A DNA stretch of 38,583 nt from an uncultured Rhodobacterales bacterium (GTDB lineage: Bacteria; Pseudomonadota; Alphaproteobacteria; Rhodospirillales; Rhodospirillaceae). The translations under genes were made by a program, and so were the position numbers. The stretch lies in assembly GCA_964521375.1 (NCBI GenBank), contig CAZFRK010000001.1, forward strand, positions 1 to 38,583, given 5' to 3'. The notes under the pieces were generated by a model. It saw only the letters and a list, made by a program, of their open reading frames with translations, ran no database searches and was not told the origin of the DNA. This document shows positions 9,658-25,678 of this stretch, in pieces (within the stretch, counting starts at the first letter, position 1; each line of letters starts with the position of its first letter).

Positions 9658-10860
9658 CTACGCGCCCAAGTTGGCCGTCGGCAGATACGGCTCCGCGCCG
9701 AACGGCCGGTTGATCACAACCAGGGCTTCCGTGGCGACGAAGATGCGGTTCCGGGCATACCCCGTCCGCTCCGTCACGATCCCCGCCTCGGCCAACTGCT
9801 CCATGGCGCCGGCCGCCGACTTGAAGCTCACGTCAAGCGCCTCCGCCAGGCGGTTGACCGTCAGCACGGGGTAGTGGGGCAAAAGGCCCAGGGCGCGCAA
9901 AGAGGCGGACCCCTGCCGGAATGGCCGACGGGTCTGCCAGATCTGCGCCAGGTCGGCGAGCGCCGTGCGCGTCGCGAGAAGTTCTGCCACCGTTCCCACC
10001 ACCGCGTCGGCCATAAAGCCGACGATTGGATCCCACTCCAACCGCTGCTGGGCCGCCTTCAGGGCGTCGTGGTAGGCGCCCTTGTGGGCCTCGATGTAGG
10101 GCGAGAGGTAGAGCGGCACGGTGCCCTCCGCCGCCATCATAAGGGGCAGCAGAAGGCGGCCCACGCGGCCGTTGCCGTCGCGGAAGGGGTGGACCGCCTC
10201 GAACATCGCATGGGCCACCGCCATCCAGGTCAGAAGACCCTGGGTCATGACCTGCATCCCGTCGCACTGCATGTAGTCGATGACCTCGCCGAGGCACTTC
10301 GGCACCTGGGCGGGTGGCGGCGGATTGAAGGTGGAGTAGGCGATGCTCGCGCCGCCGCCAATCCAGACGACGCGGTCGCGGAGTCGCCCCGGAGTGTCCT
10401 TGTAGGCGTCGTCGTCCCGCATGACCTGCCGATGCAGGGCGGAGATGAGGTCCTGGGTAAAGACGGCATGCCCCCTGTCTTGGGCGACCGGGATCCACTG
10501 GTCCAACGCCAGGGCATAGTCCCGCACCTGACGCGCCGCCCCCGAGGCGCTGCCGTCCTGTGTCTCCTCGATAGTCAGGAGGTCCTCAAGATCGCATTCA
10601 ATGCCTTCGACCATGCACGATGCCGTCGCTTCCTGCCGGCGGAGGATGCCGTCAAGCGAGTGAGCGCCGGGGAAGTTTGCCTGCAAGGCCTCAGCTTTGC
10701 CGATTGCCCTGTCAGCCGCGCTGATCAAGGCGCTTTTGTCGCCCAGGGGAATGGCTTCTCTCGGCGGAGCCGGAAGCACAACGCCGTAGTGAGCGCCGTA
10801 GGGCGCCGGAAGGCGGCACAAATACCGCTGGACGGCAGCTGGTAACTCCTCGCGGCGCAT
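9658..10860 (-). CDS. Fic-family protein (class II, intramolecular inhibitory helix) with C-terminal winged-helix domain
   Basis: Fic active-site motif HPFRDGNGRVGR. An upstream SCMVEG matches the (S/T)xxxE(G/N) inhibitory motif. The C-terminal LTVNRLAEALDVSFKSAAGAMEQLAEAGIV is wHTH-like. Confidence 0.9.
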   Translation of the reverse strand: MRREELPAAVQRYLCRLPAPYGAHYGVVLPAPPREAIPLGDKSALISAADRAIGKAEALQANFPGAHSLDGILRRQEATASCMVEGIECDLEDLLTIEETQDGSASGAARQVRDYALALDQWIPVAQDRGHAVFTQDLISALHRQVMRDDDAYKDTPGRLRDRVVWIGGGASIAYSTFNPPPPAQVPKCLGEVIDYMQCDGMQVMTQGLLTWMAVAHAMFEAVHPFRDGNGRVGRLLLPLMMAAEGTVPLYLSPYIEAHKGAYHDALKAAQQRLEWDPIVGFMADAVVGTVAELLATRTALADLAQIWQTRRPFRQGSASLRALGLLPHYPVLTVNRLAEALDVSFKSAAGAMEQLAEAGIVTERTGYARNRIFVATEALVVINRPFGAEPYLPTANLGA

Positions 10861-11112
10861 TCAAAGGCTCCAACATGGGGCGTCTTTAGCATCCATATTC
10901 TCGGCTAATCGCACAACCTTAAACAGGATGCAGGTCGTGAAATCTTGGAAGGCTAACGCTTCTCTTGGAATATGTAAGAGCTCTACCGGACAGGCACCAT
11001 CTGGAGTCCCGAGCCGGGAACAGTAAATATCTGTACCCTCCGCGATCTCCTCTGTACCCGCCTTAGCGTCGTTTTTACTTGTTGATTCCCGAGTCCAGTC
11101 GAGGGAGAATCA

Positions 11113-12441
11113 TTGCCAAAACCCTCAGCGGACGCCGGTGAAATGCAGGCAAAGCCCCATCTTTGGCCGGGCCGCCCGAAGCTCCTTCCGGGAGAGAGTC
11201 TCTCTTCTTGGTTTGGGCGAGTGGCCGCCGCCAACGCCTTGACACCCGACGAGCTCTATCGGGTGGTGGTCCCGGGCGCGCACCTGCACAGTCGCGACCT
11301 CGACCGCGAGGCGTGCGAGAGCCTGATGGAAACCATGACATCCAACACCGGCCAGGAGCGGCGCGCGTTGGACGATGCGGTTCTGAGTCGGTGGCTTGGC
11401 ACCCTGTACGGGGAAGATGACGGCCGCTGTAGGCTTCCGTGGCTGCCGCCGATCGGCCGTCATAACCACGCTAAGTCGTTCGGGCAGCAGTACTGTCCGC
11501 AGTGCCTCGTGACCGAAAAGACCCCCTATTTCCGGCTCGAATGGCGGCTGTCCTTCATGACCGCCTGTCCGCGACACCTCACGCTGCTCATCGACCGCTG
11601 CCCGAAGTGCGCCGAGCCCGTCATCCCACTGCGGACACTACGTCACCAGGGCCGCCTCCTCTGCGGCAAATGCCATGGCGATCTCGCTGAGGCCGAGTCG
11701 GTCCCGGTACCCTGGAGCAGCCTGGCGCTGCAGACCCGCCTTCGCCAGGTCGCCGGCGAAGGCTGGGCGGAAGACGGCGATGGGCGCCCCGTGTTCGGCC
11801 TGGCCTATTTCGCATTAGCCCGGGCCATCTTCCGCCTCCTCTGTTCAAGCACAACGGCGCGTGCACTGCGGGCATGGGCGGCGGAGGAGGCCGACCTCGA
11901 CATTCGCGTGGAGCACATTCCCAGGGTGAAGGAGGTGGAGCGACTGACCACGTCCCGGCGCCACGACCTCCTTCAGCTGGCTTGGGTTTACCTTCGGGAC
12001 TGGCCCCATGCGCTCATCGAAGCCTGCCGTAAGAACCACATCCCGCAATGGCACTTGTCGCACCATCGCGAGGCACTTCCCTTCGCCTTTGCGGAAGCCG
12101 TCCTTCCGGCCTTGGCCGCTCCAGTTCGTCGCGTAGATGCTGCAGAACTGGAGGCGGCAAAGGAGTTCCTGGTCCGCCGGGGCTTTGTCCCGACCTACGA
12201 CGCGCTTCAGGGCCTCCTGGGCGTCAAGTTCGAGGCTAACCGGCACGTCGCCGAACCGGCCGACGAGCGAGCGTCCCACGGAACGGGGCGCTACTGGAAA
12301 CTGGATGGCGTCGATCCCGATGTTCGTCGCGCCGTACTGCACGAGGCCCACAAGAACGGAGAGAACGTTTCGGCGTGGGTTGAACGGACTCTTTGCCATG
12401 CCCTGAAAAAAACGAACGTCGTTTTCACGTCTGACGGGTAA
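11113..12441 (+). CDS. tniQ: TniQ/TnsD-family target-selection protein
   Basis: N-terminal TniQ signature WPGRPKLLPGESLSSWFGRVAAANAL. Zinc-ribbon Cys pairs CPQC...CPRH...CPKC...CGKC. TTG 11113 has GAGGGAGA upstream, and ATG 11143 is an alternative start. Confidence 0.85.
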   Translation: MPKPSADAGEMQAKPHLWPGRPKLLPGESLSSWFGRVAAANALTPDELYRVVVPGAHLHSRDLDREACESLMETMTSNTGQERRALDDAVLSRWLGTLYGEDDGRCRLPWLPPIGRHNHAKSFGQQYCPQCLVTEKTPYFRLEWRLSFMTACPRHLTLLIDRCPKCAEPVIPLRTLRHQGRLLCGKCHGDLAEAESVPVPWSSLALQTRLRQVAGEGWAEDGDGRPVFGLAYFALARAIFRLLCSSTTARALRAWAAEEADLDIRVEHIPRVKEVERLTTSRRHDLLQLAWVYLRDWPHALIEACRKNHIPQWHLSHHREALPFAFAEAVLPALAAPVRRVDAAELEAAKEFLVRRGFVPTYDALQGLLGVKFEANRHVAEPADERASHGTGRYWKLDGVDPDVRRAVLHEAHKNGENVSAWVERTLCHALKKTNVVFTSDG

Positions 12442-12477
12442 GACTCAAAGCAGAGCCAACACACGTGGGAGTCGGAC

Positions 12478-13113
12478 ATGCCAGTCCGCAAGGTCCCTCG
12501 CAACTACTGCAACGTCACCGGTCTGACCGCAATTCCCGGGCAGCGTTCCGTGCGGGTGGAATCGACTCTGGAGCGCGACTTCGTCTTGCGCACCATCTTC
12601 CACCCGAAGTTCCGCCACATCGAGGAACAGCCCCTGGTCATTCCGGTCCCGGAGACGGCCGGCAAGTACATCCCGGACTTCCTGGTGACGTGGGAGGGCC
12701 GGCGCGAGCTGATCGAGGTGAAGCCCGCAGCGAAGCTTGTCTCAGACAAGGCGCGCCTCAGGCCCCGCTTTGCCGCCGCGAGAGCCTACTGCCGATCAAG
12801 CGGCCTTTCTTTCCGCGTCGCGACGGAGGCGCACATCCGGGGGCCATACCTGGATAACGCTCGCTTCCTCATGCCCTACAGGCATCGCGAGGTCGATGAT
12901 GACCTGCGGAATCGCCTGCTGGGATCCCTGCAGGGCGGAGGGCCCTGCTCGTTGGAAGAGCTCCTTCAGCGGGCCACCGGGAGCGACCGCCTCGCTGCTC
13001 TGCCTGTCCTATGGCACCTACTCGCCAACTTCCGCGTCCGCGTCGACCTGAACGCCCCCATCGACATGAACAGCATCGCCAAGCCGGCCAGGGGGAAGCC
13101 ATGGGCCGCTTGA
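12478..13113 (+). CDS. tnsA: TnsA-like endonuclease
   Basis: Restriction-endonuclease-like E...D...K arrangement: ESTLERDF, YIPDFLV, LIEVKP. 211 aa, sits directly upstream of tnsB and overlaps it by 13 nt. Confidence 0.8.
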   Translation: MPVRKVPRNYCNVTGLTAIPGQRSVRVESTLERDFVLRTIFHPKFRHIEEQPLVIPVPETAGKYIPDFLVTWEGRRELIEVKPAAKLVSDKARLRPRFAAARAYCRSSGLSFRVATEAHIRGPYLDNARFLMPYRHREVDDDLRNRLLGSLQGGGPCSLEELLQRATGSDRLAALPVLWHLLANFRVRVDLNAPIDMNSIAKPARGKPWAA

Positions 13114-14990
13114 GCTTCCAACCCGGCGCTGTTGTCCGCTACCAAGGACGATCCTGGATCATCCAGCGAGCCGTCAGCGCCACTGAAGTTCTTCTCGAGC
13201 GGCGCTCCGACCGGCACCGGCAGACGGCGCAGGTGAGCGTGCTTCAGCCGAACAGCCCTGTGGCCGAAGAGCCTGCGGTTGTCCACGCGGCGCGCGCGGA
13301 AGCAGAGCTGGATGAAGCCAGGAGGAGGCTCCAAATTATCCAACCTCTCCTTCAGAAGGCACGGGGAAAGACGGCGCGACAGGCCGAGGTCAGTGCCCAG
13401 ACGGGAGTTCCAGAGCGGACCCTGAGGCGCTGGTTACGCGCCTACACAGCGCGTCACCGACTATCTGATCTTGCTCCGCGACGGACCATGCGAGAGATGC
13501 CGACACGCGTTCCCAGGCGCCTGGAGAAGCTGATGGCCAAGGTCATTGAGCAGCACTGCGTCGGTCCGCGCCCCCTCAGCCAGGTAGCTGCCCATCAGAT
13601 CTTACAGCGGGAGTGCCGGAAGCTGCGTATCGACGCACCCTCCATCAACACCTTCCGTGATCGGGTTCACAAGGCGCGCAAGGCCCTCCGCGAGAAGGCG
13701 CCGCCCCTTGAGCATCAACCTGTGAGAGGCCCCTTCCCCGACGCGCCTTTTCCCCTGAGCTGCATCCAGATCGACCACACGCCCGCTGACGTCTCTTTGG
13801 TCCACGAGGAGTCACGGCTCCCCATCGGCCGCCTGTGGATGACCGTGGCCATCGACGTCTACTCGCGCATGATCATGGGCTACTACCTGTCCCTCGACCC
13901 GCCCTGCACCTTCTCCGTGGCCATGTGCATAGCCCAGGCAGCCCTTTCCAAGGAGGCCCATCTCGAGCGCTTCGGCGTCGGCGGGACATGGCCCACCTGG
14001 GGCAAGGGCATCACATGGCACGCGGACAACGCCCAGGAGTTTCGCGGAAACACCATCGCGCGCTTTTGCGAGGAGCATGGGATCCACCTTCTATGGAGGC
14101 CGGCGGGGAAACCGAACTTTGGCGGCCACATTGAGCGTCTGCTCGGGACGTTCGCTGAAGACTTCAAGAAGCTCCCCGGCTCGACTCATCGTCCAGACAA
14201 GAAGGATAAGCACGACCCGGACAAGACTGCTGCGATGACGCCAAGAGACTTCGAACGCCGCCTGTTGGAGTTGATCGTCAACGACTATCACGTGAGAGAG
14301 CACTCGGCTTTGGGCTGCTCACCACTGCAGAAGTGGGAGCAGGGCATCATTGGCCACGGATCGCAAAAGGGGACGGGGCTCCCCGAGCCCGTACAGGATC
14401 CCCTTCGCTTCTGGCGCGATTTCCTTCCGTTTGAAGAGCGGACCGTCCAGCGGGAGGGCATTGTCTGGGACGGCATCACCTACTACGCCGACGCGCTCCG
14501 CCCCTGGATCCGGGCGTCGAAAGGCGGCCAGATGCAGAAGTTCGTCGTCCGTCGCGACCCCCGTGACATAAGCCGGATCCTGTTCCTGGATCCGGAGATC
14601 AACGACTACCTGGAAATTCCGTACCGCGATATCAGCCGCCCCTCGACGTCGATCTGGGACTGGCGGGCTGCAAAGGCCGCCCTGCGCCGTGAAGGACGCG
14701 CGAACATCGACGAAGACGCCATCTTCGAAGCCCAGGAGCGGATGGACGCTCTGGTTGCGCAATCGGTCAGCGAAACCAAGAAAGCACGGCGGCGCGATCA
14801 ACGCCGACGGATAGGCGCACCTCTGCCGGCAGCTATCGAGAAGGCAGCCCAGGACAAAAGTCCGGCCTCTCCTCCTGTCCCGGCCGCCAACCACCCACAA
14901 CGCCTGGCCCTGATCGTCGATAACACGCAGTCAGACGACGAATACGACATTCCCGACGACGTCTACTCAACTCGGCTGGAGGAACTGTGA
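13101..14990 (+). CDS. tnsB: TnsB-type DDE transposase (Mu/rve superfamily)
   Basis: ATG 13101 (MGRLSFQPGAVV...). N-terminal HTH regions, then a DDE core with IQIDHTPADV and WHADNAQEFR, and an acidic C-terminal tail. Confidence 0.9.
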   Translation: MGRLSFQPGAVVRYQGRSWIIQRAVSATEVLLERRSDRHRQTAQVSVLQPNSPVAEEPAVVHAARAEAELDEARRRLQIIQPLLQKARGKTARQAEVSAQTGVPERTLRRWLRAYTARHRLSDLAPRRTMREMPTRVPRRLEKLMAKVIEQHCVGPRPLSQVAAHQILQRECRKLRIDAPSINTFRDRVHKARKALREKAPPLEHQPVRGPFPDAPFPLSCIQIDHTPADVSLVHEESRLPIGRLWMTVAIDVYSRMIMGYYLSLDPPCTFSVAMCIAQAALSKEAHLERFGVGGTWPTWGKGITWHADNAQEFRGNTIARFCEEHGIHLLWRPAGKPNFGGHIERLLGTFAEDFKKLPGSTHRPDKKDKHDPDKTAAMTPRDFERRLLELIVNDYHVREHSALGCSPLQKWEQGIIGHGSQKGTGLPEPVQDPLRFWRDFLPFEERTVQREGIVWDGITYYADALRPWIRASKGGQMQKFVVRRDPRDISRILFLDPEINDYLEIPYRDISRPSTSIWDWRAAKAALRREGRANIDEDAIFEAQERMDALVAQSVSETKKARRRDQRRRIGAPLPAAIEKAAQDKSPASPPVPAANHPQRLALIVDNTQSDDEYDIPDDVYSTRLEEL

Positions 14991-15874
14991 TGCGGCAATT
15001 CGAGCTCTTCCCGCGTTCGGACTACCTCCAGTCGGGCCTTCCTGAAACGGGCGATCGGTCACGGATTTCCCAGCTGTTCCGGACCGGGTGGGTGCCCTAT
15101 CCGGTTGGGCTCAAATGCCTGGACATGCTCGACCAGCTACTCCACCGCCCTCCAAGCCATCGCCCGCCCTGTCTGATCCTTCACGGCGACAGCAACAACG
15201 GCAAGACGACCATCGCGCGGAAGTTCCGTAAGGACAAGAACCTGGACACGGTGGCCACGAGCGACCAGGCCCACATGCCGGTGCTGATGGTCGAGACACC
15301 AAGCAGTGACTTCAACATCTTCCTCAGCCTCGTTTTGCGCGCCCTGAATGCGCCGGATCCAGGTTCCAGTCGGGACCGCCGGCTCCACCAGGTGCTCAAC
15401 CAGCTGCAGGCCACCCGGGTGCGCATGCTGATCATCGACGAGATCCACAACATCCTGTGCGGCAAGACAGATCAGCGGAACGCCTTCATGAACGGGCTGA
15501 AGTTCCTCAGCAACCAGCTGGAGATCCCAATGGTCCTGATCGGCACCATTGAGGCTATGCGCGCCGTGCAAACAGACCCTCAGCTGGGGAATCGTTTCGA
15601 GCCGTGCCAGCTCCCGCGATGGAAGAGCGATGCCAGCTACGCGCAGTTCCTGGGCGCCCTCTGCGCCACCATGGGCCTGCAGGAAGGCGGCAACTGGAGG
15701 TCGCCCCGCCTGACCAGCCGCTTCCACGCGATGACCGAAGGCCTGACCGGCGAAACCTGGAGCTTGATGGCTCGTGCGGCGGAAACGGCTATTCGCCTCG
15801 GAACTGAGGTGATCGACGACGCCACCCTGGACAAGACGCACTGGGTTCTACCGAGTGAGCGCCGGAGGGGCTAG
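14990..15874 (+). CDS. tnsC: TnsC/TniB-type AAA+ ATPase
   Basis: Walker A in LHGDSNNGKTT and Walker B in MLIIDEIHN. The start overlaps the tnsB stop (GTGATG). Confidence 0.88.
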   Translation: MRQFELFPRSDYLQSGLPETGDRSRISQLFRTGWVPYPVGLKCLDMLDQLLHRPPSHRPPCLILHGDSNNGKTTIARKFRKDKNLDTVATSDQAHMPVLMVETPSSDFNIFLSLVLRALNAPDPGSSRDRRLHQVLNQLQATRVRMLIIDEIHNILCGKTDQRNAFMNGLKFLSNQLEIPMVLIGTIEAMRAVQTDPQLGNRFEPCQLPRWKSDASYAQFLGALCATMGLQEGGNWRSPRLTSRFHAMTEGLTGETWSLMARAAETAIRLGTEVIDDATLDKTHWVLPSERRRG

Positions 15875-15911
15875 GAGTGGAATCCAATTCTCTGCTGATC
15901 GCACACGCGCA

Positions 15912-16262
15912 TCATTCTCGAGGGGCCTGGAGGTCTGCGATCGCCTCCAACAACTTCGCTATAGACTTTGCCCCCTCCGGAGTCTCATCCCAGATGCGGC
16001 GCATGCCAGACTGAGCCACCTCCCATTCAGGGGGTGCGTCCTCTGTCGGGGCCTCTAGACGCGGTACGCTTACCCCTAGAACCCTGCAGACCTCCACGAC
16101 ATTGTGGCTGAAGGTCTTGAACCGACCCGTACAAATTCTGGCGACTTGGCTTGGGTGAACGTTCGATATTCGCCCAATCTCGGCCCATGACAGTCCCGAG
16201 CTTGAGCGGGCCTGCGCGATCTTTTCCCCAAGATCGGTTAATTGCTTGCGAGTAGGCTTCAT
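15912..16262 (-). CDS. XRE-family HTH transcriptional regulator
   Basis: MKPTRKQLTDLGEKIAQARSSSGLSWAEIGRISNVHPSQVARICTG is a classic XRE helix-turn-helix. It is divergent from the NADAR gene, and the start (16262 versus an upstream Met) is uncertain. Confidence 0.7.
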   Translation of the reverse strand: MKPTRKQLTDLGEKIAQARSSSGLSWAEIGRISNVHPSQVARICTGRFKTFSHNVVEVCRVLGVSVPRLEAPTEDAPPEWEVAQSGMRRIWDETPEGAKSIAKLLEAIADLQAPRE

Positions 16263-16297
16263 GCAAATTAGCATGCATAGTGACGAGCAAATTTGCA
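16262..16297. promoter_or_regulatory. Operator-like inverted repeats in the XRE/NADAR divergent region
   Basis: TGCAAAT (16262..16268) and ATTTGCA (16291..16297) are inverted. The perfect palindrome GCAAATTTGC (16287..16296) abuts the NADAR Shine-Dalgarno AAGGAGG. Confidence 0.45.
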
Positions 16298-16308
16298 AGG
16301 AGGCTTTG

Positions 16309-16791
16309 ATGGACGAAATTCGCTTCTATCGCGCGAATGAAAAGCCGTACGGCGCGTTCAGCAATCTCTACCGCCGAACGATAGTGTTTGAAGGGGAGGT
16401 GTTCGCAACAAGCGAGCATGCCTACCAAGCAGGCAAGGCGCGAAAACCCGCCGTGCGGAAATGGCTCATGGACGCACCGACCCCGGCGCTACTCGCAATG
16501 GCGGCTCATGGGCTCTACTACTGGGATGTCGCGCCCGGCTGGTCATCAACGAAATTCGACCGAATGAGGGCCGTGCTACGGGCCAAGTTCACGCAACATG
16601 AGGATTTGCGCGAACTGCTTCTCTCTACTGGCAATGCAAAGCTCATAGAGACCGCGACGGTGGATAACGATGTCAACCGCCTCTGGGGGGAAGTTAAAGG
16701 GGTCGGCAAAAATATGCTTGGCGTTCTTCTAATGGAACTCCGCGACGACTTGCGAGAAGACGCAGACAAGGCTTACATTGCCGCGGAATAG
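16309..16791 (+). CDS. NADAR-family protein (YbiA/DUF1768-like; ADP-ribose/N-glycosidic-bond hydrolase family)
   Basis: ATG 16309 is preceded by AAGGAGG at 5 nt. Motifs FYRANEKPYGAFSNLY, FATSEHAYQAGK and LWGEVKGVGKNMLG are typical of the family. Confidence 0.88.
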   Translation: MDEIRFYRANEKPYGAFSNLYRRTIVFEGEVFATSEHAYQAGKARKPAVRKWLMDAPTPALLAMAAHGLYYWDVAPGWSSTKFDRMRAVLRAKFTQHEDLRELLLSTGNAKLIETATVDNDVNRLWGEVKGVGKNMLGVLLMELRDDLREDADKAYIAAE

Positions 16792-17723
16792 CGCTCGCCG
16801 CCTTCCGACAGGAGGCTACGGACGTACTCGGCATCCCGGTGCCGGAATAATCCCCTTGCACCAGCGAACGCGCAGTTCTCTGCCGCCAGCCGTTGCCCTG
16901 CGGTCACCCCCCTTAGCAGACGTGCCGCCTTAAGCGCATGCGAGCTCAGATGGTTGGTCAGCAGCCAGTCTATGACTCCCACGCTGACCATGTCTCCCGA
17001 GCCGCACGTGTCTACGACGGCGGGCGCGCTGAACGATGGACACCAAAACACGTCCGTTGCGTCGCGCAGCTCAAGACCTGCGGCCCCATAGGTGACGATC
17101 CGCACACAATCCGTGACCTCATCGGCTAGGCGCTCGCCCAGCCGGTCGTCGGAATACTTAAGGATCGAGCATAACGAAATCGCTTCTTCGAAAAGATGAT
17201 CGTCCTCAATTTTGGACGGCTCAAAGAAGACAACAGCGCCAGAGGCGCGAGCAATCTTTAAAGCCTCCAATATCCCGTGGGAGAGACGGTCAACATAGAA
17301 GACGCTACAGTTGGTGAGGACGGGCAAGGCCTGAGCTAGCTCCAGCTCACCGATGGGATGATATCGAGGAAAATCCTCGTTTGTCTCCGGACAGACGAAG
17401 CTGAAGCTGTGCAAACCGAGACTTGGGTTGAGGGTCTGCGCGAGCACCGGAGATCGAAGACCCGGCCGACGGTAGATGTACTCCACGACCGCGCCCGCCT
17501 GGATAAACTCGTTGATGAGCCTTTCACCCTCACCGTCGTCACCCAGAGCAAGCACAGGCGCCACGTTTCGGTGCAACATCGCCAACGAGAGCAGCACATT
17601 TCCACACGAGCCGCCAAGGGCTTCGCCAGCCAGTCCGCCATCTGTGTACAAGCGGTCCAGAACCGTAAATCCTGTTCCGGAGACATCGGCCCGCCAGTTG
17701 CGAACGCATTTTGAAATGGACAT
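16773..17723 (-). CDS. PfkB/ribokinase-family sugar or nucleoside kinase
   Basis: N-terminal GG motif LGGSCGNVLLSLAML and C-terminal anion-hole/catalytic motif VVDTCGSGDMVSVG. The 3' end overlaps the convergent NADAR gene by 19 nt. Confidence 0.88.
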   Translation of the reverse strand: MSISKCVRNWRADVSGTGFTVLDRLYTDGGLAGEALGGSCGNVLLSLAMLHRNVAPVLALGDDGEGERLINEFIQAGAVVEYIYRRPGLRSPVLAQTLNPSLGLHSFSFVCPETNEDFPRYHPIGELELAQALPVLTNCSVFYVDRLSHGILEALKIARASGAVVFFEPSKIEDDHLFEEAISLCSILKYSDDRLGERLADEVTDCVRIVTYGAAGLELRDATDVFWCPSFSAPAVVDTCGSGDMVSVGVIDWLLTNHLSSHALKAARLLRGVTAGQRLAAENCAFAGARGLFRHRDAEYVRSLLSEGGERYSAAM

Positions 17724-17744
17724 ATGAGCCGGAAGATCAGTTTG

Positions 17745-19682
17745 TCAGTGGCTGTCAAGCGCCAGCAGTTCACTGTCTATGCAAACGCGCCCTTCTGGTG
17801 AGTGTACCAGAGAACGCAGCACTCTGAGAAGGGCCTCCGGGCCGGTGGGCCTGTCTCCGAAAAGCGACCAGCATCCGTCCGGCGCATCACAAACATCACC
17901 GACACTGATACCGAATGCGTGAGAGAGGAAAGCGTGATCGTTGCCGCTCCGGGAGCCGCTATCACCGAAGCAGAGGATCTCGCTTCCGGGCTTCGCAGCA
18001 ACCCGCAGCGCCTCTACAACCTTAAGCTTGCTAGACGCAGCGGGTACGACGTCATAACTGTGGCCCGAGCTCGTGATGCGAAGATCTCCGGAGGCCAAAA
18101 CAGGGCACTCCGAAAAGTCTCCGACGAACCTGTCGGGGTGCTTCAGGGCATCCATCCCAATCGTGATCTGGAGAGCTCGAACCTTGAAGTCGTGCGCCTC
18201 AAAGAGATCACGTCGAGTCCACAGCCAAGCAGCCGCGCCCTCTATTGCTGGATGTCGCTCAATGAGCTCGTGCTCAATATCCACGTCAGCTGTCCGCAGT
18301 AGGCCGCCGTTGTAGTAGCCGACCACCACGGATCCAACCATCTCCGGCGGAAGGAGACTCCGCAGTTCCTCTCCAACGGAACCACCGCGCCCTGTCGCTA
18401 TGCCGATTTCGACGCCCGCATGGTGGAGCCGAACTATCTGCTCGATGATTCGGGGCTCTGGAGGTCCGAAGCGGCAGTCCGTAGCGACGAGAGTACCGTC
18501 GTAGTCGAAGACTGCGCCGCCAATTTCAGCCTTTAAAAGCGCCTCTACGCGCTCCTGGTTGGTTGAAGAAAGAGTCTCGCAATCGGCCTCCTGACCCCCT
18601 GTGCGCGCCATTGCGGAACGCTTATGGCGTACGCTCGTGGTCAGTCGGCTGGCCACTTGGGCCAAAGATCCGGCCTCATATATTGATCGACCGAAGTCGC
18701 CAACACCAGGCTTCCCCGGATCGATTTCCAGTATAACGCCGAGCCCCTCAATGATGCCGAAGCCATCAATCAAAGCCGACGCGTTATCCAAGCGACTGCA
18801 AGAACCATGGTCCAAGGCTGCACGGCGAATCGAAGAAGGCAGAACGGCATCAATTGCTCGCCACGAAGACCGAGAATCCACCCCAGTGAGCCCCAATACG
18901 AAAGTCTCTTCGGCCCGATGGTGCAGCCAAGTGTGGCGGCCGTGCGCTAGGTTGCGGATATCTGTCGTCTGAATGGGGCACAGTGCGGCTTCCCATAGTG
19001 ACGTATCCAGCAACACAGCCAGCGGACGCAGAAGCGGATCTGCTGCTAAGATGAGCGTGTCGGTCCTTCGAATGCCGTCAAATAGCTCCCTCACTTCTTC
19101 TCGAGAAATTGGTTCTAGACACCGGGCGAGCCGCTCGGCCAATAACGACAAGAGAGCGTCCCGGCCGAGTGGTTCTCGCGAAGCCAGATCGCTCCCTAAA
19201 AGCAAGGCGGTGACTGAGGCCATCAATGAATGCGTGGCGAGATAACCGTCCTTCGCATCGGCCACGGGTACGAGATGAACCGTGCCATTTCCACGCCTGG
19301 CAATCTCTGCGGCTGCGCCTTTCTCGTTCCTGGTAACGAGGTGGAGTCGTCTGCAACCTCGGTCGAGGGCAGCCTGGGCAGCGGCTGAAATATCGGCGTT
19401 GTCTCCGCCGGCACTGAACAGCCACACCTCGCTTTCCGCAAGGCCCTGCAACTCGAGGACAGCTTGCATTGGAGTCTGGACGGATGTCGGGCCAAGGCTA
19501 AGCGTATCGCGGCAGCGCGCAAAGTACTCCGCAGCAACTAATGATCCGCCGGACCCGACCGCCAGCGCGTGCCGGCCGCCCCCCTGCCTCAGCGCCGTCG
19601 CCAAACAAGACGGGTCAAATGTCTCAAACAGGTTTAGCGTACTGGGAAGTGCGTCCAGTTTTTGGTTGAATACATTCAGCAT
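17745..19682 (-). CDS. Fusion protein: N-terminal (tandem) SIS phosphosugar-binding domains + C-terminal HAD-IIB phosphatase
   Basis: SIS-like HALAVGSGGSLVAAEYFA and VWLFSAGGDNADISAAAQAALDRGCRRLHLVT. HAD motif I GAVFDYDGTLV, motif II GIATGR and motif IV CFGDSGSRSGNDHAF (the GDxxxxxND of Cof/OtsB-type IIB). Confidence 0.8.
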   Translation of the reverse strand: MLNVFNQKLDALPSTLNLFETFDPSCLATALRQGGGRHALAVGSGGSLVAAEYFARCRDTLSLGPTSVQTPMQAVLELQGLAESEVWLFSAGGDNADISAAAQAALDRGCRRLHLVTRNEKGAAAEIARRGNGTVHLVPVADAKDGYLATHSLMASVTALLLGSDLASREPLGRDALLSLLAERLARCLEPISREEVRELFDGIRRTDTLILAADPLLRPLAVLLDTSLWEAALCPIQTTDIRNLAHGRHTWLHHRAEETFVLGLTGVDSRSSWRAIDAVLPSSIRRAALDHGSCSRLDNASALIDGFGIIEGLGVILEIDPGKPGVGDFGRSIYEAGSLAQVASRLTTSVRHKRSAMARTGGQEADCETLSSTNQERVEALLKAEIGGAVFDYDGTLVATDCRFGPPEPRIIEQIVRLHHAGVEIGIATGRGGSVGEELRSLLPPEMVGSVVVGYYNGGLLRTADVDIEHELIERHPAIEGAAAWLWTRRDLFEAHDFKVRALQITIGMDALKHPDRFVGDFSECPVLASGDLRITSSGHSYDVVPAASSKLKVVEALRVAAKPGSEILCFGDSGSRSGNDHAFLSHAFGISVGDVCDAPDGCWSLFGDRPTGPEALLRVLRSLVHSPEGRVCIDSELLALDSH

Positions 19683-20833
19683 GTACGGCCCGCCTCACTA
19701 TAGCTTTCGTACATCGGCCCCGACAAAATCAGGTGGACCATCATGTCTGGCCTATCTGGCGAGGGCGCGGGGACACCCTCAATGGCATAGCTCTCCATTT
19801 CCAGATATTGGACAGCCATACCATGCTCTATAGCTGCCATGAGCGCGCCAGCCGCCAGAACCTTGCTACCGATTGGGGAGAGCACCATGCGCGGCTCAAA
19901 GGTGCCTTCCATTGTCCGATCAAATCGGACCTTCAGGGTCGATAGCGTGCGGTAGCAGTCTAGAGGGTTCTTCTCGGACGCATATACTACGTCTCTAGGA
20001 TCAACCAGCCACTCATTGACCAGGGCAATCTCGTATTCGGATAGAAGGTCGTCAGCACGCCGAGGATTCCGCGAGGGAAACGGAAGGAGCGGGCAGATCT
20101 TGTAGCATCTGCCAATCGCGATCCCGATCTGGGCCAACGCTGACGCCCTCCCCCGCGCTAGCTGGGGGATCCAGATCTGCGCCAGGTCTTGCTCTCCATC
20201 CGCTTCGGCAGGCAGCGCAAAACCTTTCACGGCACTGGGGCGGCTCCACGGCGTCCCCACAATCCTGTCGTCCATCTCCGGGTTGGAGACAATCATGAGA
20301 TGGAAGCTTCTGTTGGCTGCGGACTCGCAGTCCTCTAACAGCATCCTTGCTGCGGGAAAACCCACGCCGATGGAAAGAGCGCTCAGGTCAAGAATAACAT
20401 CGGTGACTTCATCCGGAACCTGATATTCCGTCAAGAGCTTAACTATACGAGCCCCTCCGACCGGCGCACTGTCATCAGCAAAAATGTCTACCCGAAGGAC
20501 GGAACAATCGGGAACAATTCTCCTCAACGTCTCCTCATTTTCATCCGCCAGCGCCAGAAGATCGTCCGACGGCGCAGGTCGTTCTTCACGAATGAAAATG
20601 GCACATAGTCGGGACCCCATCACATCAGCCAGCATTTGTGCAATCCGCCTGGATCTGGGATCGAAACCGGCAGCAGCAACAAGGAGAACACGTCTTGCGG
20701 GATTTCTGAAATAGTCTCTCGCGAAATCTTCAACGTCTTCGTCAAAGTTCGTTATACAGTTCTCCCAATGACTACGCATCTTCAAGTCCCGCAACATCTC
20801 GAAGGTAGCTGACTTTTTTTGGTATGAACCCAC
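19676..20833 (-). CDS. Uncharacterised 370-385-aa protein (two Rossmann-like halves; no family recognised)
   Basis: Long ORF embedded in the operon. The stop overlaps the SIS-HAD ATG (ATGCTGA). Candidate starts are 20833, 20797 or 20779; the last gives an 8-nt overlap with the NTPase stop. Confidence 0.7.
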   Translation of the reverse strand: MGSYQKKSATFEMLRDLKMRSHWENCITNFDEDVEDFARDYFRNPARRVLLVAAAGFDPRSRRIAQMLADVMGSRLCAIFIREERPAPSDDLLALADENEETLRRIVPDCSVLRVDIFADDSAPVGGARIVKLLTEYQVPDEVTDVILDLSALSIGVGFPAARMLLEDCESAANRSFHLMIVSNPEMDDRIVGTPWSRPSAVKGFALPAEADGEQDLAQIWIPQLARGRASALAQIGIAIGRCYKICPLLPFPSRNPRRADDLLSEYEIALVNEWLVDPRDVVYASEKNPLDCYRTLSTLKVRFDRTMEGTFEPRMVLSPIGSKVLAAGALMAAIEHGMAVQYLEMESYAIEGVPAPSPDRPDMMVHLILSGPMYESYSEAGRTC

Positions 20834-22679
20834 CTCGATGGAAGGTGAGCCCGTGAACCAAGCATACCGTCCCAGTCAGCTCTACCAGAGCCCAAAGCTT
20901 TCCCCCTTGTCCGTAGTTCCGCTCAATCGTAATTGCGCCGTTCGCGATGGCATGCTTAAGAATGATCGCAAGATCGTCATCGGCCGGAAGCGAGTCCATC
21001 TCTTCCTCAAGGATGCCGATCGCATTTGCGCCATAGCCGAGAGGAGCATTCGGAAGAGTGGATTCGGCCATGCATTCTCTACCTATCGCGTCAACCATCT
21101 CTCTTACGCGCTGCGCGTAGGCGAACGGCCAGTCGTCCATTATCTCCTTTGCCTTCCTCACAAGAACGGATTGTTGCTCCCGGGCAGAGAGAGCTAGCGG
21201 TCTGTTTCGAATCGCGCGAGTTTCGATACTTGCAACCAGAGCCCCTGTAAAACGAAGGAATCGTTCTGCGTTTCCGTCGCTGGCATCGCAAATTCTGTCA
21301 ACGCCATAATGTAAAGGCCGCCCATATTCATGATAGAGATGGAGCCGCGCCCCATTTGCGACGTAAGAATCCGCCTTTAAGGGCATTGCGATATCTGCGT
21401 CCAACTCTTCGAATAGGGAGGGCGTGGAGCGGGCGACCCTGATCGCATAGCGATGGAGTAGAATGCGCGTCATCGCAAGGTGGATGTCTTTTCCCTTGTC
21501 ATAAGACTTGGACCGCCCTAAGTACTCGGCAACTATATTTTCAATCTCTCGCCGCCGCGACTTTGTAACGCCGAGACTTTCCTGCTCCTTAGAAACCTTT
21601 TCTTCGAGCTGCCTAAACTGGCTGTCTGTTAGTGACGGAGGCTTGCTCGGAAGCAAACGATCAATGTCGGTAACGTTGCCAATTACCTCCACCCGAGGAA
21701 GGTATCGCCCTGCCATATCACGCGCCACCGCTCGAAACTGCCGACGAACCGAATCCGATTTTTCGTGGTCCTGCATGCGAATGTCGATGAAGTCGCGACC
21801 AATAGAACGATTATGCGTCGGCTGACTGCCAGAGGAACGCAAAACGGCACCAGGGCTCAGCGCGTCCAACCGCATCATCAACCAGCGTCCGAACTTCATC
21901 TCTCGATGAGATAGCATTCCGAACATGGCTTCGAGTTGATCGTGGTGCAGCGCATGAATATCGTCCAGCATGACCAGAGGAACCAATTCTATCGCCTCGC
22001 CCTTCCACTCTATGCGAATCCTGCTAATGGCATCGAAAGGAGCGTAGGGCGCCGTTGCGTCTTTCGGCAAATCTTCAAGTTTCGGTGGACGGAGTCCCGC
22101 ACCCACGGAGTAGATGGCGCGCTGTACCGCGAGAGCCCTATCTCGGATACCGGCGGTCGAGAGACCGCCAATCTGCTCTAGATGAGCCTCGTAATTGGCA
22201 CGCGGAACGAACTCGATTTCCTGGATGCTGCGGGTGTTGTTAACTGTCAGGTTCCTGATCAGCCCAAGCACAGCGCGGGCCTGCACCAACCAGAACGCAA
22301 GCTTTGCTTTTACCGCCGGCTCGTACGGCAATTCCCAGAACTCGCGATACTCCGACTCCATCGGCACCCTCACGGCCGCTACATGAGGTCTGCCATCCCG
22401 AAGAAAACCCGCCCTCGCCAAATCGGCGGCCAGTGACCTATTGGTGAGATTGGTCTCGTCCCTCAAGATGATTTCCACCATCTTGAATTCGGCCAACCTG
22501 GCCAGCGTGGTCTTACCGCTGCCGGGTGAGCCAATTATGCGCACCGGCAAATCGAACACTTCGTCTTTATGTTTGCTCGTCGCGAGGAATGTCGTCAGCG
22601 GCTTGGGACTGACGATCGACAGAAAAGCCTCATCATCGCGAACATACTCAGTTGCTCGCCGAAGGAATGGATTCGCCAT
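20772..22679 (-). CDS. Large P-loop NTPase (AAA+/STAND-like) with ~400-aa uncharacterised C-terminal region
   Basis: Walker A in VRIIGSPGSGKTTLARL and Walker B in LVPLVMLDDIHAL. The ATG lies 6 nt after the upstream PRTase-like stop. Confidence 0.85.
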   Translation of the reverse strand: MANPFLRRATEYVRDDEAFLSIVSPKPLTTFLATSKHKDEVFDLPVRIIGSPGSGKTTLARLAEFKMVEIILRDETNLTNRSLAADLARAGFLRDGRPHVAAVRVPMESEYREFWELPYEPAVKAKLAFWLVQARAVLGLIRNLTVNNTRSIQEIEFVPRANYEAHLEQIGGLSTAGIRDRALAVQRAIYSVGAGLRPPKLEDLPKDATAPYAPFDAISRIRIEWKGEAIELVPLVMLDDIHALHHDQLEAMFGMLSHREMKFGRWLMMRLDALSPGAVLRSSGSQPTHNRSIGRDFIDIRMQDHEKSDSVRRQFRAVARDMAGRYLPRVEVIGNVTDIDRLLPSKPPSLTDSQFRQLEEKVSKEQESLGVTKSRRREIENIVAEYLGRSKSYDKGKDIHLAMTRILLHRYAIRVARSTPSLFEELDADIAMPLKADSYVANGARLHLYHEYGRPLHYGVDRICDASDGNAERFLRFTGALVASIETRAIRNRPLALSAREQQSVLVRKAKEIMDDWPFAYAQRVREMVDAIGRECMAESTLPNAPLGYGANAIGILEEEMDSLPADDDLAIILKHAIANGAITIERNYGQGGKLWALVELTGTVCLVHGLTFHRGGFIPKKVSYLRDVAGLEDA

Positions 22680-22685
22680 GACGTG

Positions 22686-23876
22686 TCAGCCGTGTCTATC
22701 GCGACGGAAGAACAATGAAACCATCTTTCTACCCTGATGACCACCAGTCTCCGCCCAAAGGAGCGGGATGGAATTATTAGGAGTGTTATGCTCGAGGACT
22801 ACTGGGAGAGCACAATTAGCATATCCGAACCGCATGTCGGCCTGGCCGGCCTCCCGGCAGTGCTTCTCAAGGCGTATAAATAGATCGTGATCATAATATT
22901 TCTGCGCCAGTGAAACAATGGCATCATCTTCACTGTTCGTTGGGGCTGTGGAGGTGGGTTCATCTCCAACATGTGCGACCTTTATATCATTTAGCAACAG
23001 AAGACCTTCCGTGATAATGGCGCTCCGGTAGCTCTTATCGCGCATTACCTTGTCGGCTTCCTCCACACGTTCGAGCAGCGCTTCTCGTGCTTGAGCCGTC
23101 GAAATATAATGATGTATGTGTAGATTGTAATTTTCCGACAGAGGAAACTTGTCCCCTAAAGAACGTTTAGCCTCCGCCACAATGGCTTCGAACTTCGCAA
23201 GCTTTCCTTTGGGCCTTCCCTCCGGAAATCGGATAAAAGTAGTGCCTGAAGCGGTGAAATCATCTATTAAGTATACGTCATCAAACTTAGCCCCTATTCC
23301 AAGGTCGCCCTGAATATCATCTGCCAAGCTTCTCCATTTATCATGATCAATGTTCATCATGGGAACCACCTGCTCCTGAGACAGGCGGCCTGCGTTTGCC
23401 CGGCGAAGAGCATCAATCCGGCTGCCATCGCTAAGACCAACAAAGAGGCAGCGGCGCAACCTTTTTGCGAATGCGTGAGCAACCTGAGGGGACTTCCAAA
23501 CCTCGTATGGCCTCACATCAAATTCTTCGGCGACAGATCGACGCAGATAAGGAATTACAACCTCTGGCACAAACGTCTCTATGAGCCGCTGCATCTCCAG
23601 AGCCGATACGTAAACTAGGCGAGTTTTGATGAATTCATAAGCGTGAGACCTGTCCTCTTCATCGAAGTGACGCAGCCAAGATACCAAGGTCTCTAGGAAG
23701 CGCACGCCAGCGCGAAAATCGGAATATCCGTCATATTTCATAGACGACATGAGAGTCAGCCATGAGTACTCCTTTGTGGCCTTCTCGTTGTCCCACCTCA
23801 TCACGCTGGCAATGAGGTTAAGAGCGAGGATATTTATCATGATCGACTCTTGCCCGTACGTCTTATCCCGCTGCAT
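22686..23876 (-). CDS. Phosphoribosyltransferase-like protein with long helical N-terminal domain
   Basis: PRPP-binding loop DDVYLIDDFTASGTTF. The track ORF extends to TTG 23972, but that codon is preceded by TCTCCTCCT with no SD. ATG 23876 or 23840 is the more plausible start. Confidence 0.8.
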   Translation of the reverse strand: MQRDKTYGQESIMINILALNLIASVMRWDNEKATKEYSWLTLMSSMKYDGYSDFRAGVRFLETLVSWLRHFDEEDRSHAYEFIKTRLVYVSALEMQRLIETFVPEVVIPYLRRSVAEEFDVRPYEVWKSPQVAHAFAKRLRRCLFVGLSDGSRIDALRRANAGRLSQEQVVPMMNIDHDKWRSLADDIQGDLGIGAKFDDVYLIDDFTASGTTFIRFPEGRPKGKLAKFEAIVAEAKRSLGDKFPLSENYNLHIHHYISTAQAREALLERVEEADKVMRDKSYRSAIITEGLLLLNDIKVAHVGDEPTSTAPTNSEDDAIVSLAQKYYDHDLFIRLEKHCREAGQADMRFGYANCALPVVLEHNTPNNSIPLLWAETGGHQGRKMVSLFFRRDRHG

Positions 23877-24333
23877 CTCAAAATGAGCGGCAGCGCCAAG
23901 CACAATCCTGGCACGATCGCAGGCGTTTTCAAACCTTGTAGATTGGGGCGAGTATCGGAGACGCTTCGACAAGGAGGAGAAGACGCCGCGCGGCCTGCCA
24001 ATGGGGACATGAAACTTGATATTCGCCTGGGTACGGTCGGGTTAATGGTGACAGTGGCAGCTATGCCCTCCGTCTGCGGACGGGTTCCCCGCTCCGGGGC
24101 AGTTCAGCCTCCCTGAACTCGCGATCCCAGCAACCCGCTTTAGGGGGCGCTGAGGAGGGCGACCGGAGGAATGTTCCGATGAGACGGAAGAATGCCCCCC
24201 CCTCGGCCGCTTATTTTTCGCCCTGAGCTAGCGCGTTATCATAACGATCGAAAATTTTACATAGGAAGTTTGACTACGCTAATTCGGCGCAATGCGTTTG
24301 GTCTGAAAGATTTATTTGTAAACCAGTTGGCAT

Positions 24334-24343
24334 CTGACGTCAG
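24334..24343. promoter_or_regulatory. Perfect palindrome CTGACGTCAG in the AT-rich region upstream of the cargo operon
   Basis: Read directly. It lies ~360-460 nt upstream of the candidate PRTase-like starts. Confidence 0.3.
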
Positions 24344-24488
24344 CCTTGATGAAATCATAAATGAACTGAGCAGACATAACCGTAGGAAGCGGTAGCGTCC
24401 CAGTCTTTGCCTGACGAGCAGGCGCGGCCGGAGGATGAGGACTGCGCCTGTTCCCATCAGGCGCTGCTGAATGCTGGTAGGCCATCAG

Positions 24489-25307
24489 CTAACGCGTCGG
24501 CCCAGGCGGCTCCACGAGCGGATGGCGAAGGATCTCCATCGTCTCCTTCGCCTGTGCGAGCCAGCGGCGGCATTCGCGATTATCGGCGAAGGAAACGCCA
24601 ATCACCTCTTCCTGATTGACGTCGTAGAGGGCATAGCGCGGTTTGCCATGCGAAACGCTGATGCGGAAGAGGAGCGCCGGATGGCGCGTCTCGAACCGCA
24701 CCGCCCGCGTTTCCGGCGACACCACAGGCAGATTGTCCTTGAACAGCGAGCGGAACTCGTCGTCGATCTCGCCATGAAGCGCCAGGCGCTCCGCATGGTC
24801 GTCCGGCCTTAGACCATGGAACGAGTCCAGGACGTTGGCCAGCGCCACTTCCCTGGCCATCGGGAGAAGCTCATATGCGGGAGGCGTCAGCTGCTCGGCG
24901 CCGGCATCGCCGTCCACCACGTGGTGCCTATCCGGCATCAGGATCAGGATCTTGCGGAACAACCCGGTGAGCCCGGCCAGGACCTCGCTCTCGGAGATTG
25001 GCTCCACCATCGCATAGGTGTTGGCGCGGCACGTCTGGTTCCACCGATGTCCAGCAACAGCGCGTAGCGCATCGACGCGCTCCCGGTGCCACGCGGCCCA
25101 GACGTAGGCCTTCCAGCTACCGTCCTTTTCGGGACGAAGGCGGGCTAATCCGAGCCCGTCGGCTGGGACATCCAGGTGCCGTCCCAGCTCGGAGAGGAGC
25201 TTTCGATGCTCGCCGGCCATCTGTGGCAGCGGGAGGCCCCGGCAGTAGTCTATGATTTCCTCGAATGTCTTCCTCGCCAACGGGTCCTCACTACGCCGGT
25301 GCGCCAT
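24489..25307 (-). CDS. Hypothetical protein (272 aa) next to the distal transposon end
   Basis: ATG 25307 is preceded by AGAGGGGGA. I recognise no motifs. A hairpin CAGGCGC-N18-GCGCCTG lies just downstream (24419..24450). Confidence 0.6.
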   Translation of the reverse strand: MAHRRSEDPLARKTFEEIIDYCRGLPLPQMAGEHRKLLSELGRHLDVPADGLGLARLRPEKDGSWKAYVWAAWHRERVDALRAVAGHRWNQTCRANTYAMVEPISESEVLAGLTGLFRKILILMPDRHHVVDGDAGAEQLTPPAYELLPMAREVALANVLDSFHGLRPDDHAERLALHGEIDDEFRSLFKDNLPVVSPETRAVRFETRHPALLFRISVSHGKPRYALYDVNQEEVIGVSFADNRECRRWLAQAKETMEILRHPLVEPPGPTR

Positions 25308-25555
25308 CACGTCCCCCTCTTCTGCTAACCGGTGTCCAGGTTGGAGAAGACGCTCTCGCGACGCAAGCCGCCAAACGGCACTGGCCGGTTGAGCTCCGTT
25401 CGGCTAGTTCGGATGCGGGGAGACGTTTTCTGCTCGCACTGGAATCCCGCAAGACTTCTGCAGGGGCGCATTGAGTTCCATTTACGCGAGACGGCTGCAT
25501 CGCCTGCTGGTCGATACCTACAGCCTTAAAATCCCACAGTACGTCCGCAATCTTC

Positions 25556-25678
25556 GGCCATTTTCAACTGGTGTTTTACAGGTTCCGGCCACGCTTAACT
25601 GGTGGCTTTGGCCATGACGAACTGGTGCATCAACGGCCCTGACTCCGGCTCACCGGCCATCTACATCTGAATCTGACA
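25556..25678. repeat. Transposon end distal to tRNA (L-like, more dispersed): four putative TnsB-binding repeats
   Basis: Read on the reverse strand. The terminal site is TGTCAGATT-CAGAT-GTAGA-TGGCC. The other three are CAGTT-CGTCA-TGGCC, CAGTT-AAGCG-TGGCC and CAGTT-GAAAA-TGGCC. The GGCCA cores start at 25556, 25587, 25610 and 25655. Confidence 0.8.

Follow-up and report, generated by a model that had tools for sequence, protein, structure and literature searches.

The stretch of DNA analysed here (the window) comprises 38,583 nt of contig CAZFRK010000001.1, from an uncultured Rhodobacterales bacterium, and carries within a Tn7-like transposon a compact, self-contained cassette of seven genes, about 8 kb in all. 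The cassette encodes a phosphoribosyltransferase (PRTase) of the family PRTase-CE, where CE stands for conflict effector, together with an ORC/Cdc6-like AAA+ NTPase, a CARF6-family protein, a SIS-HAD fusion protein, a PfkB-family kinase, a NADAR protein and a helix-turn-helix (HTH) regulator. Copies of this cassette are widespread and move horizontally, and it is very probably a conflict system directed against phages or plasmids; in our judgement there is about an even chance that it works by the scheme proposed below. The evidence that carries this reading lies in the composition and synteny of the cassette, in catalytic motifs that are unchanged across orthologues in every cassette enzyme, in its mobility and in its defence-island context.

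Composition and organization of the cassette

Six of the genes had been recognized in an earlier note on this DNA, and all six open reading frames (ORFs), the four coupling junctions and the 19-nt overlap of NADAR with PfkB that it described were found in the sequence (Table 1), as were all ten of the motifs that it quoted, which were located in the translations. The unit was drawn one gene too small, however, as the HTH gene (15912..16262, minus strand) is also part of it.

As read directly from the sequence, the PRTase and NTPase genes are joined by TGA, 6 nt (cacgtc) and ATG; the NTPase and CARF6 genes overlap (-8 nt) in ATGCGTAG at 20779..20772, and the CARF6 and SIS-HAD genes (-7 nt) in ATGCTGA at 19682..19676; the SIS-HAD stop, TGA, is followed after 21 nt by the PfkB ATG. 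The spacing at the first three of these junctions (6 nt, -8 nt, -7 nt) suggests that the genes are co-translated. The NADAR gene runs in the opposite direction and converges on PfkB, its stop at 16791 lying beyond the PfkB stop at 16773 to give the overlap of 19 nt. The matches returned by promoter and terminator scans were no better than chance. The lower GC content reported in the earlier note was also seen: 0.51-0.58 at 16-24 kb, while the element is otherwise at 0.62-0.65 and the host DNA on either side of it at 0.67-0.73.

Table 1. Genes and sites of the cassette and the transposon that carries it (window coordinates)
Feature	Position	Strand	Remarks
PRTase-CE	22686..23843	-	385 aa from ATG 23843, the most likely start; mechanical ORF reaches TTG 23972 (428 aa)
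ORC/Cdc6-like AAA+ NTPase	20772..22679	-	635 aa; C-terminal half large and family-specific
CARF6-family triple Rossmannoid/CARF protein, standalone	19676..20779	-	367 aa from ATG 20779; full ORF 19676..20833, 385 aa
SIS-HAD fusion	17745..19682	-	645 aa; double-SIS at residues ~1-330, HAD-IIB at ~385-645
PfkB-family sugar/riboside kinase	16773..17723	-	316 aa
YbiA-like NADAR, predicted N-glycosidase	16309..16791	+	160 aa; convergent with PfkB
Divergent control region	16263..16308		46 nt; palindrome TTGCAAAT-N20-ATTTGCA
Xre/cI-type HTH regulator	15912..16262	-	~116 aa from ATG 16262; divergent from NADAR
Tn7-like transposon	6387..25678		19,292 bp; carries the cassette

Conservation and distribution

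A scan for homologous loci, with one genome taken per species, returned 54 loci, and in 45 of these species-level genomes all six genes are present in identical order and orientation. The nine incomplete loci include six that end at contig ends, one that is rearranged and two that are decayed. In the rearranged locus (L013, 4502..12915) the trio of PRTase, NTPase and CARF6 genes is normal, and is preceded by NADAR and a divergent PfkB (29%) and followed by a divergent SIS-HAD (30% identity), all of these on the opposite strand. One of the decayed loci (L015) is reduced to the NTPase, CARF6 and a shortened SIS-HAD, and its PRTase, PfkB and NADAR are gone; in the other (L051) the PRTase, CARF6 and SIS-HAD genes are in fragments.

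The link between the genes extends to much more distant versions. When plasmids were searched, the PRTase and CARF6 queries hit one and the same set of 19-20 records, with identities as low as 24-31%, and variants at 24-41% identity in Betaproteobacteria and Actinobacteria keep the gene set in a changed order. Hosts of the distant versions include Rathayibacter, Paenarthrobacter, Paraburkholderia, B. gladioli, Agrobacterium, Sulfitobacter and Bradyrhizobium. Three arrangements were seen among them: SIS-HAD/PRTase/NTPase/CARF6/PfkB, with a convergent NADAR present or absent; NADAR/SIS-HAD/PRTase/NTPase/CARF6, without PfkB; and a protein of ~636 aa annotated as 'sucrose-6-phosphate hydrolase' followed by PfkB/PRTase/NTPase/CARF6, in which the purported hydrolase is possibly the SIS-HAD homologue. 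That the genes belong together, as the earlier note held, is thus borne out both in the 45 of 54 species-level genomes and, with shuffled order, in the distant variants. Judging by the gene sets of the latter, the core of the cassette consists of SIS-HAD, PRTase-CE, NTPase and CARF6, to which PfkB is usually added and NADAR, with its HTH gene, frequently. In a plasmid variant from A. tumefaciens (L064, 14406..14927) a nuclease resembling NucC and other PD-(D/E)xK enzymes (DUF6602) follows PfkB at the usual place of NADAR, which hints at an alternative or extra effector.

Overall the cassette is spread over Alpha-, Beta- and Gammaproteobacteria and Actinobacteria by means of Tn7-like elements, integrative and conjugative elements (ICEs) and plasmids, and it moves as a unit, since neither the upstream DNA nor the small ORFs found there are conserved.

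The PRTase-CE and its NTPase

The PRTase scores 75.1 bits with the Pfam family PRTase-CE (PF24390), for which the cutoff is 27 (E 1e-20), and this domain is present in all of the PRTase homologues listed; it also matches the PADLOC models for the retron PRTase_III-A at 1e-13. The '-CE' effector name reportedly goes back to work by Nicastro and colleagues in 2023. The loop [DE]DFTASGTT, which in type-I PRTases binds phosphoribosyl pyrophosphate (PRPP), is intact and invariant in 19 orthologues. The protein most likely starts at ATG 23843, since called orthologue genes are of 370-388 aa and tblastn matches span ~90% of the 428-aa ORF that begins at TTG. A 55-aa ORF at 23842..24009 (minus strand), whose TGA overlaps the PRTase ATG (ATGA), is not conserved in the other loci and is probably spurious; both this ORF and the small ones that precede the PRTase gene elsewhere were considered as cassette genes and dropped for lack of conservation.

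Among the NTPase orthologues, 15 of 19 match the Pfam family ORC-CDC6-like (PF24389), and that of B. gladioli does so over the full length (2.8e-25, profile positions 42-564 of 571). The Walker A motif GxPGxGKT and the DD of Walker B are invariant. The NTPase was also compared by hhalign with the TniB of the same element, and the Walker B segment alone could be aligned. PF24389 and PF24390 are consecutive Pfam accessions, which suggests that the two families were derived from one described system.

The CARF6 protein

The 385-aa ORF that the earlier note had left as an unknown is a full-length match to the PADLOC profile CARF6--CARF_CARF_CARF (PDLC01910), with an E-value of 1e-106 over residues 22-376 of 385, and its distant orthologues match the CARF6 profiles at 1e-108 to 1e-146. 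The AlphaFold2 model (pLDDT 89) consists of tandem Rossmannoid domains. In a Foldseek search tandem Rossmannoid domains resembling the universal stress protein (USP) came first, while the CARF domain of Can2 bound to cyclic tetra-adenylate (cA4) was a weaker match (E 2.6e-4), its alignment falling on the C-terminal Rossmannoid domain of CARF6; the TM scores of all these matches were low. A CARF6 profile search over 1.84 billion representatives gave 691 clusters at 50% identity, and among the 150 representatives listed the members are standalone proteins of ~360 aa. Comparison of the model with viral structures by Foldseek yielded generic Rossmann matches only, and tblastn of CARF6 against 50,697 phage records gave zero matches.

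The SIS-HAD and PfkB proteins

The C-terminal part of the SIS-HAD protein matches HAD-IIB (TIGR01484, 1e-10), and all four HAD motifs (DxDGT, TGR, K and GDxxxxxxND) are invariant in orthologues. A SIS domain is undetected by Pfam in this 645-aa protein. In the AlphaFold2 model (pLDDT 82.6), Foldseek matches the N-terminal half to NagB-II (1e-11), the GlmS isomerase domain and FrlB (8glr, 5e-9), with TMt of 0.73-0.78, and this prediction confirms a double-SIS module of the GlmS/NagB-II/FrlB class; homologues are named 'FrlB-like' by the Joint Genome Institute (JGI). The PfkB protein matches Pfam PfkB at 1.7e-14 and its GG and DTxGxGD motifs are invariant in orthologues, its nearest solved relatives being fructokinases, the aminoimidazole riboside (AIR) kinase and sulfofructose kinase. 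The domain assignments made in the earlier note from motifs were recovered by profile for PRTase-CE, PfkB, NADAR and HAD-IIB (E of about 1e-20, 2e-14, 4e-25 and 1e-10, respectively), while the SIS assignment, unseen by Pfam, came to be confirmed through structure prediction.

NADAR, the HTH regulator and their control region

The NADAR protein matches Pfam NADAR at 4e-25 and keeps the E-H-x-Y-Q core; its gene has a Shine-Dalgarno (SD) sequence, aaggagg, before ATG 16309. No other gene of the cassette is as well conserved (median identity 80%, compared with 46-61% for the rest). Among solved structures E. coli YbiA comes nearest (2b3w, 1e-26); a 'NADAR domain-containing protein', 8bau, which we take to be a DarT-associated DNA-ADP-ribosyl hydrolase, is matched at only 3.5e-8. 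Membership in PADLOC PDC-M42C or in NCBIfam DS32_2, the anti-phage NADAR, was rejected on weak scores far under membership level (for DS32_2, 63 bits with a cutoff of 240). YbiA-type NADARs cleave N-(5-phosphoribosyl)amino bonds, and YbiA itself is said, after work by Frelin and colleagues in 2015, to be an N-glycosidase acting on 5-phosphoribosylamino-pyrimidines. Such hydrolysis of 5-phosphoribosylamino bonds is the hydrolytic reverse of a PRTase reaction.

The HTH gene matches Pfam HTH_31 (4e-7) and is syntenic in 36 of the 45 complete cassettes. Across loci the region between it and NADAR holds a palindrome of the form TTGCAAAT-N18-22-ATTTGCA, with one arm directly beside the NADAR SD and the second reaching into the start codon of the HTH gene. 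In 10 of 16 orthologous loci the palindrome is exact over at least 7 nt, and it is near-exact in most others, with a diverged spacer. The retention of this palindrome between the NADAR SD and the HTH start, despite divergence of the spacer, suggests that the HTH protein represses both genes.

The Tn7-like element and the genomic neighbourhoods

The ends of the transposon are inverted repeats of 25 nt (6387-6411 and 25654-25678), 92% identical and of the form TGT...ACA, which hold repeated (A/T)ATGGCCG-type sites of TnsB type. They are bordered by a 5-bp target duplication, GTTCG, at 6382-6386 and 25679-25683, and the insertion lies 62 bp downstream of tRNA-Gln(CTG) (6251..6324). The transposition genes, tniQ-tnsA-tnsB-tnsC(tniB), occupy 11113..15874 on the plus strand with cargo to either side of them, and the same tns module is found at the corresponding place beside the cassette in a marine metagenome contig (L071, 14181..18952).

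With its boundaries set and its cargo matched to known genes, the element proved, as the earlier note had proposed, to be a Tn7-like one that the cassette shares with TIR and Fic genes. The TIR protein, of the minus-strand pair 6628..7332 and 7539..8156, is a full-length match to ThsB of Thoeris (3e-120). The adjoining 205-aa ORF gave zero Pfam or PADLOC matches and ThsA was not recognised; these genes may form a variant of Thoeris whose partner escaped recognition. The Fic protein (9658..10860, minus strand) matches SoFic, a single-gene defence system (PADLOC, 7.5e-68). Near the right end of the element, a 273-aa ORF (24489..25310, minus strand) drew no match from Pfam, NCBIfam or PADLOC, and other copies of the cassette do not keep it alongside.

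In other genomes the cassette adjoins serine or tyrosine recombinases, Gabija-like genes, insertion sequence (IS) and Tn3 elements and ParE/Phd; type I restriction-modification genes with VgrG; or, elsewhere, SIR2 with an integrase. Plasmids, and the type IV secretion system (T4SS) genes of conjugative elements, also flank or carry it. A census of the nearest flanking ORFs (147, from about 45 genomes) was made up mostly of T4SS coupling proteins, recombinases and relaxases, and also included AbiH, RES, PIN, HEPN, GajB, JetA/JetD (Wadjet), ShosA, CapP/JAB and a DRT reverse transcriptase. A theme of lipopolysaccharide (LPS), capsule or salvage genes, the surroundings that in the earlier note were to speak against a defence role, was absent from these 147 ORFs, and the argument made there against housekeeping metabolism is supported by the location of the cassette in mobile elements and defence islands.

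Proposed mode of action

These observations are compatible with the working model of the earlier note, and from them we infer the scheme that follows, including each functional role and the identity of the ligand. Since the characterised defence PRTases are toxic effectors, the PRTase-CE is taken as the effector and the coupled NTPase as its switch. The PRTase of Retron-Eco11 depletes PRPP, and Ophion protects only when the conserved residues of its own PRTase, OpnC, are intact. In the cassette, the AAA+ NTPase would act as an ATP-driven sensor or switch, probably engaging DNA or protein of the invader, and would control the PRTase-CE, which in turn, like the retron III-A3 effector and ShosT, would attack the nucleotide supply, by consuming PRPP, by making or breaking N-ribosyl-5-phosphate bonds, or both. 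Replication of the invader and of the cell would stop. CARF6 is presumed to gate the switch through binding of a small ribotide or phosphosugar, the level of which would be set by the co-translated SIS-HAD and PfkB.

Enzymes with SIS modules of the GlmS/NagB-II/FrlB type act on the phosphates of aminosugars or ketosamines, which they interconvert or deglycate; HAD-IIB enzymes take off sugar phosphates or shift them; and the PfkB subgroup in question phosphorylates the primary hydroxyls of furanoses, riboside included. The chemistries to be expected of SIS-HAD and PfkB might thus be ketosamine/aminosugar-phosphate isomerisation or deglycation, dephosphorylation, and re-phosphorylation of the primary hydroxyl of a furanose. 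NADAR would hydrolyse the N-(5-phosphoribosyl) product or ligand and so keep the system off or reset it, in the manner of an antidote. On this basis SIS-HAD, PfkB and NADAR would share one chemical theme, that of sugar-amine and ribosyl-phosphate conjugates.

It is conceivable, if rather improbable in our estimate, that SIS-HAD and PfkB, possibly with PRTase-CE, make a new immune second messenger that the triple-CARF protein reads and NADAR erases, with the AAA+ protein coupling it to the sensing of the invader; such a messenger would be derived from a phosphosugar or N-ribotide, unlike the cyclic oligonucleotides or ADP-ribose derivatives. If this were so, it would mean a new signalling chemistry for prokaryotic immunity as well as the first function for CARF6. 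Should the cassette be an immune system at all, an isomerase/deglycase, a phosphatase and a kinase of sugar phosphates would join the chemistry of defence, and CARF6, a large family with its 691 clusters at 50% identity, would receive its first function. One hypothesis open to biochemical test is that the PRTase acts as 'writer' of N-ribosyl-5-phosphate bonds and the NADAR as their 'eraser', and a compact, self-contained and mobile cassette is a practical target for cloning and for challenge with phages or plasmids.

Several points weigh against a conflict cassette working in this way. Profile searches against the sequences of the Protein Data Bank (PDB) found no solved relative of either the PRTase or the NTPase, and the NTPase of the window itself matches PF24389 marginally (28.7 bits with a cutoff of 27, 7e-7). 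Support from Foldseek for a CARF rather than a generic Rossmannoid/USP fold is weak, with TM of 0.23-0.29. CARF6 is without a fused effector among the 150 listed representatives, and a cyclase or known signal synthase was not found in the cassette, so that its 'ligand' is hypothetical. NADAR and PfkB are each missing in some variants, and neither is therefore obligatory. The pair formed by PfkB and the double-SIS also resembles the catabolic fructosamine pair FrlD/FrlB, which makes a metabolic reading of the SIS/PfkB half possible. Finally, a literature search found no experiment on any member of the cassette.

Alternative explanations

A rather unlikely alternative is that the cassette is a factory for an antiviral metabolite, in which PRTase, HAD, PfkB and SIS build an unusual nucleoside or nucleotide analogue that poisons the replication of the invader, the NTPase and CARF6 regulating its production and NADAR degrading the product for self-protection. 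All four small-molecule enzymes do keep their catalytic motifs and are inherited along with the PRTase, and there are precedents in the chain terminators of viperin-like enzymes, in the Ter-linked clusters of PRTase and HAD genes with a predicted nucleoside-like metabolite (PMC7824862), and in Ophion, where the conserved residues of the radical SAM (rSAM) protein and OpnC are essential and the authors suggest that transcription-halting nucleotides may be produced. However, the PRTase belongs to a 'CE' family related to the retron III-A effectors, whose characterised member depletes PRPP and makes no drug; a base-modifying enzyme is absent, and some of the variants are without PfkB. It is also conceivable, but to our minds decidedly unlikely, that the cassette is no immune system but an addiction or stabilisation module of mobile elements, akin to a toxin-antitoxin (TA) pair, with basal PRTase-CE toxic, NADAR and the sugar enzymes serving as antidote, and loss of the element killing the cell. 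Carriage almost exclusively on transposons, ICEs and plasmids would fit this well, as would the conservation of NADAR, which is higher than that of any other cassette gene, and its separate promoter region, under HTH control and with a conserved putative operator; ShosTA, which has a PRTase, is formally classed as a TA system. Yet several variants lack NADAR, addiction would call for far less than seven genes that include an AAA+ protein and a CARF sensor, and defence genes are as common as mobility genes among the neighbours; TA and defence roles can, moreover, coexist.

The likeness of the double-SIS to the FrlB/NagB-II/GlmS class in structure, the 'FrlB-like' name given to its homologues by JGI, the parallel between the PfkB partner and FrlD, and the many hosts in which the cassette is on Rhizobium or Agrobacterium plasmids all speak for a further suggestion: an accessory catabolic or salvage island on the model of the frl operon, for a glycated amine, an opine-like compound or a riboside, spread by plasmids in plant-associated bacteria. 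We regard this as very improbable: the cassette is not accompanied by any conserved transporter or catabolic regulator; its constant companions PRTase-CE, AAA+ NTPase and CARF6 do not belong in catabolism; integrases, T4SS and defence genes make up the flanks; and the GC content is below that of the host.

Comparison with known systems

PADLOC gave no system-level match of the cassette proteins to any named system, in keeping with the statement of the earlier note that it knew of none with this composition. The families, however, are already catalogued (CARF6, PRTase-CE, ORC-CDC6-like), the central ones through comparative genomics, and to that extent the conceptual novelty had been overstated. 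This kind of system seems already to have been catalogued in silico, and the gap is experimental rather than conceptual, because effector and sensor families alike are in the computational catalogues. A full-text literature search found no paper describing the cassette, three papers in Nucleic Acids Research (Makarova et al. 2020, Burroughs et al. 2015 and Nicastro et al. 2023) lying outside its reach.

In its vehicle the cassette is in familiar company. TnsA, TnsB, TnsC(TniB) and TniQ, the TGT...ACA ends, the 5-bp duplication and the tRNA-adjacent insertion of Tn7-like transposons are all present here; in contrast to other Tn7-like elements with defence cargo, the order is tniQ-tnsA-tnsB-tnsC, cargo lies on both sides, and there is no CRISPR module. 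The FrlB-like double-SIS and the PfkB kinase are common to the frl pair and the cassette, but, unlike FrlB/FrlD or GlmS/NagB-II, the SIS of the cassette is fused to HAD-IIB and sits in a conflict-type operon. A catabolic operon of the frl type was considered and set aside, transporter and GntR/catabolic regulator being absent in every cassette context examined. The ADP-heptose pathway (GmhA/HldE/GmhB) was likewise rejected: the SIS is double and of the GlmS/NagB-II type, rfaE_dom_I scores 19 bits against a cutoff of 345, and nucleotidyltransferase and LPS neighbours are missing.

With DarT-NADAR and YbiA the cassette shares a protein of the NADAR fold that probably removes an N-linked (phospho)ribosyl group, as an 'eraser', and that is nearer to the metabolite-directed YbiA (1e-26) than to 8bau (3.5e-8); DarTG and DarT-NADAR themselves were dismissed, a DarT domain not being found in the cassette or the element. 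Common to the cassette and CARF-based immunity (type III CRISPR, and CBASS with SAVED/CARF) are a CARF6-family protein and co-encoded candidate enzymes for its ligand, but those of the cassette are of sugar-phosphate type rather than nucleotide cyclases or ring nucleases. Type III CRISPR and CBASS were rejected as identities, with no Cas10 or CD-NTase in the cassette or the scanned element genes and no CRISPR array.

Close ties exist to retron III-A3 (Retron-Eco11), ShosTA and Ophion with its OpnC, in whose characterised members a PRTase serves as toxic effector against PRPP or purine metabolism. A retron III-A was excluded, no reverse transcriptase (RT) domain being present in the cassette proteins or neighbouring element genes, and the Rfam matches in the window consisting of a tRNA alone with no msr/msd; ShosTA was excluded in that PADLOC found no match to ShosA (DprA-like) among the cassette proteins. 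The lack of a retron RT, a DprA/ShosA or a DarT partner, as noted earlier for this locus, thus holds in the Pfam and PADLOC scans of the cassette. Partners of the rSAM or PHP kind are also missing. The cassette PRTase, a PRTase-CE by Pfam and matched by the retron PRTase_III-A models of PADLOC, nonetheless resembles theirs in its intact loop and its setting among defence and mobile genes, and in place of their partners it has an ORC/Cdc6-like NTPase, CARF6, SIS-HAD, PfkB and NADAR. The cassette is very probably, in these terms, a PRTase-CE conflict system with a distinctive set of partners, of a kind that may already have been described in silico.

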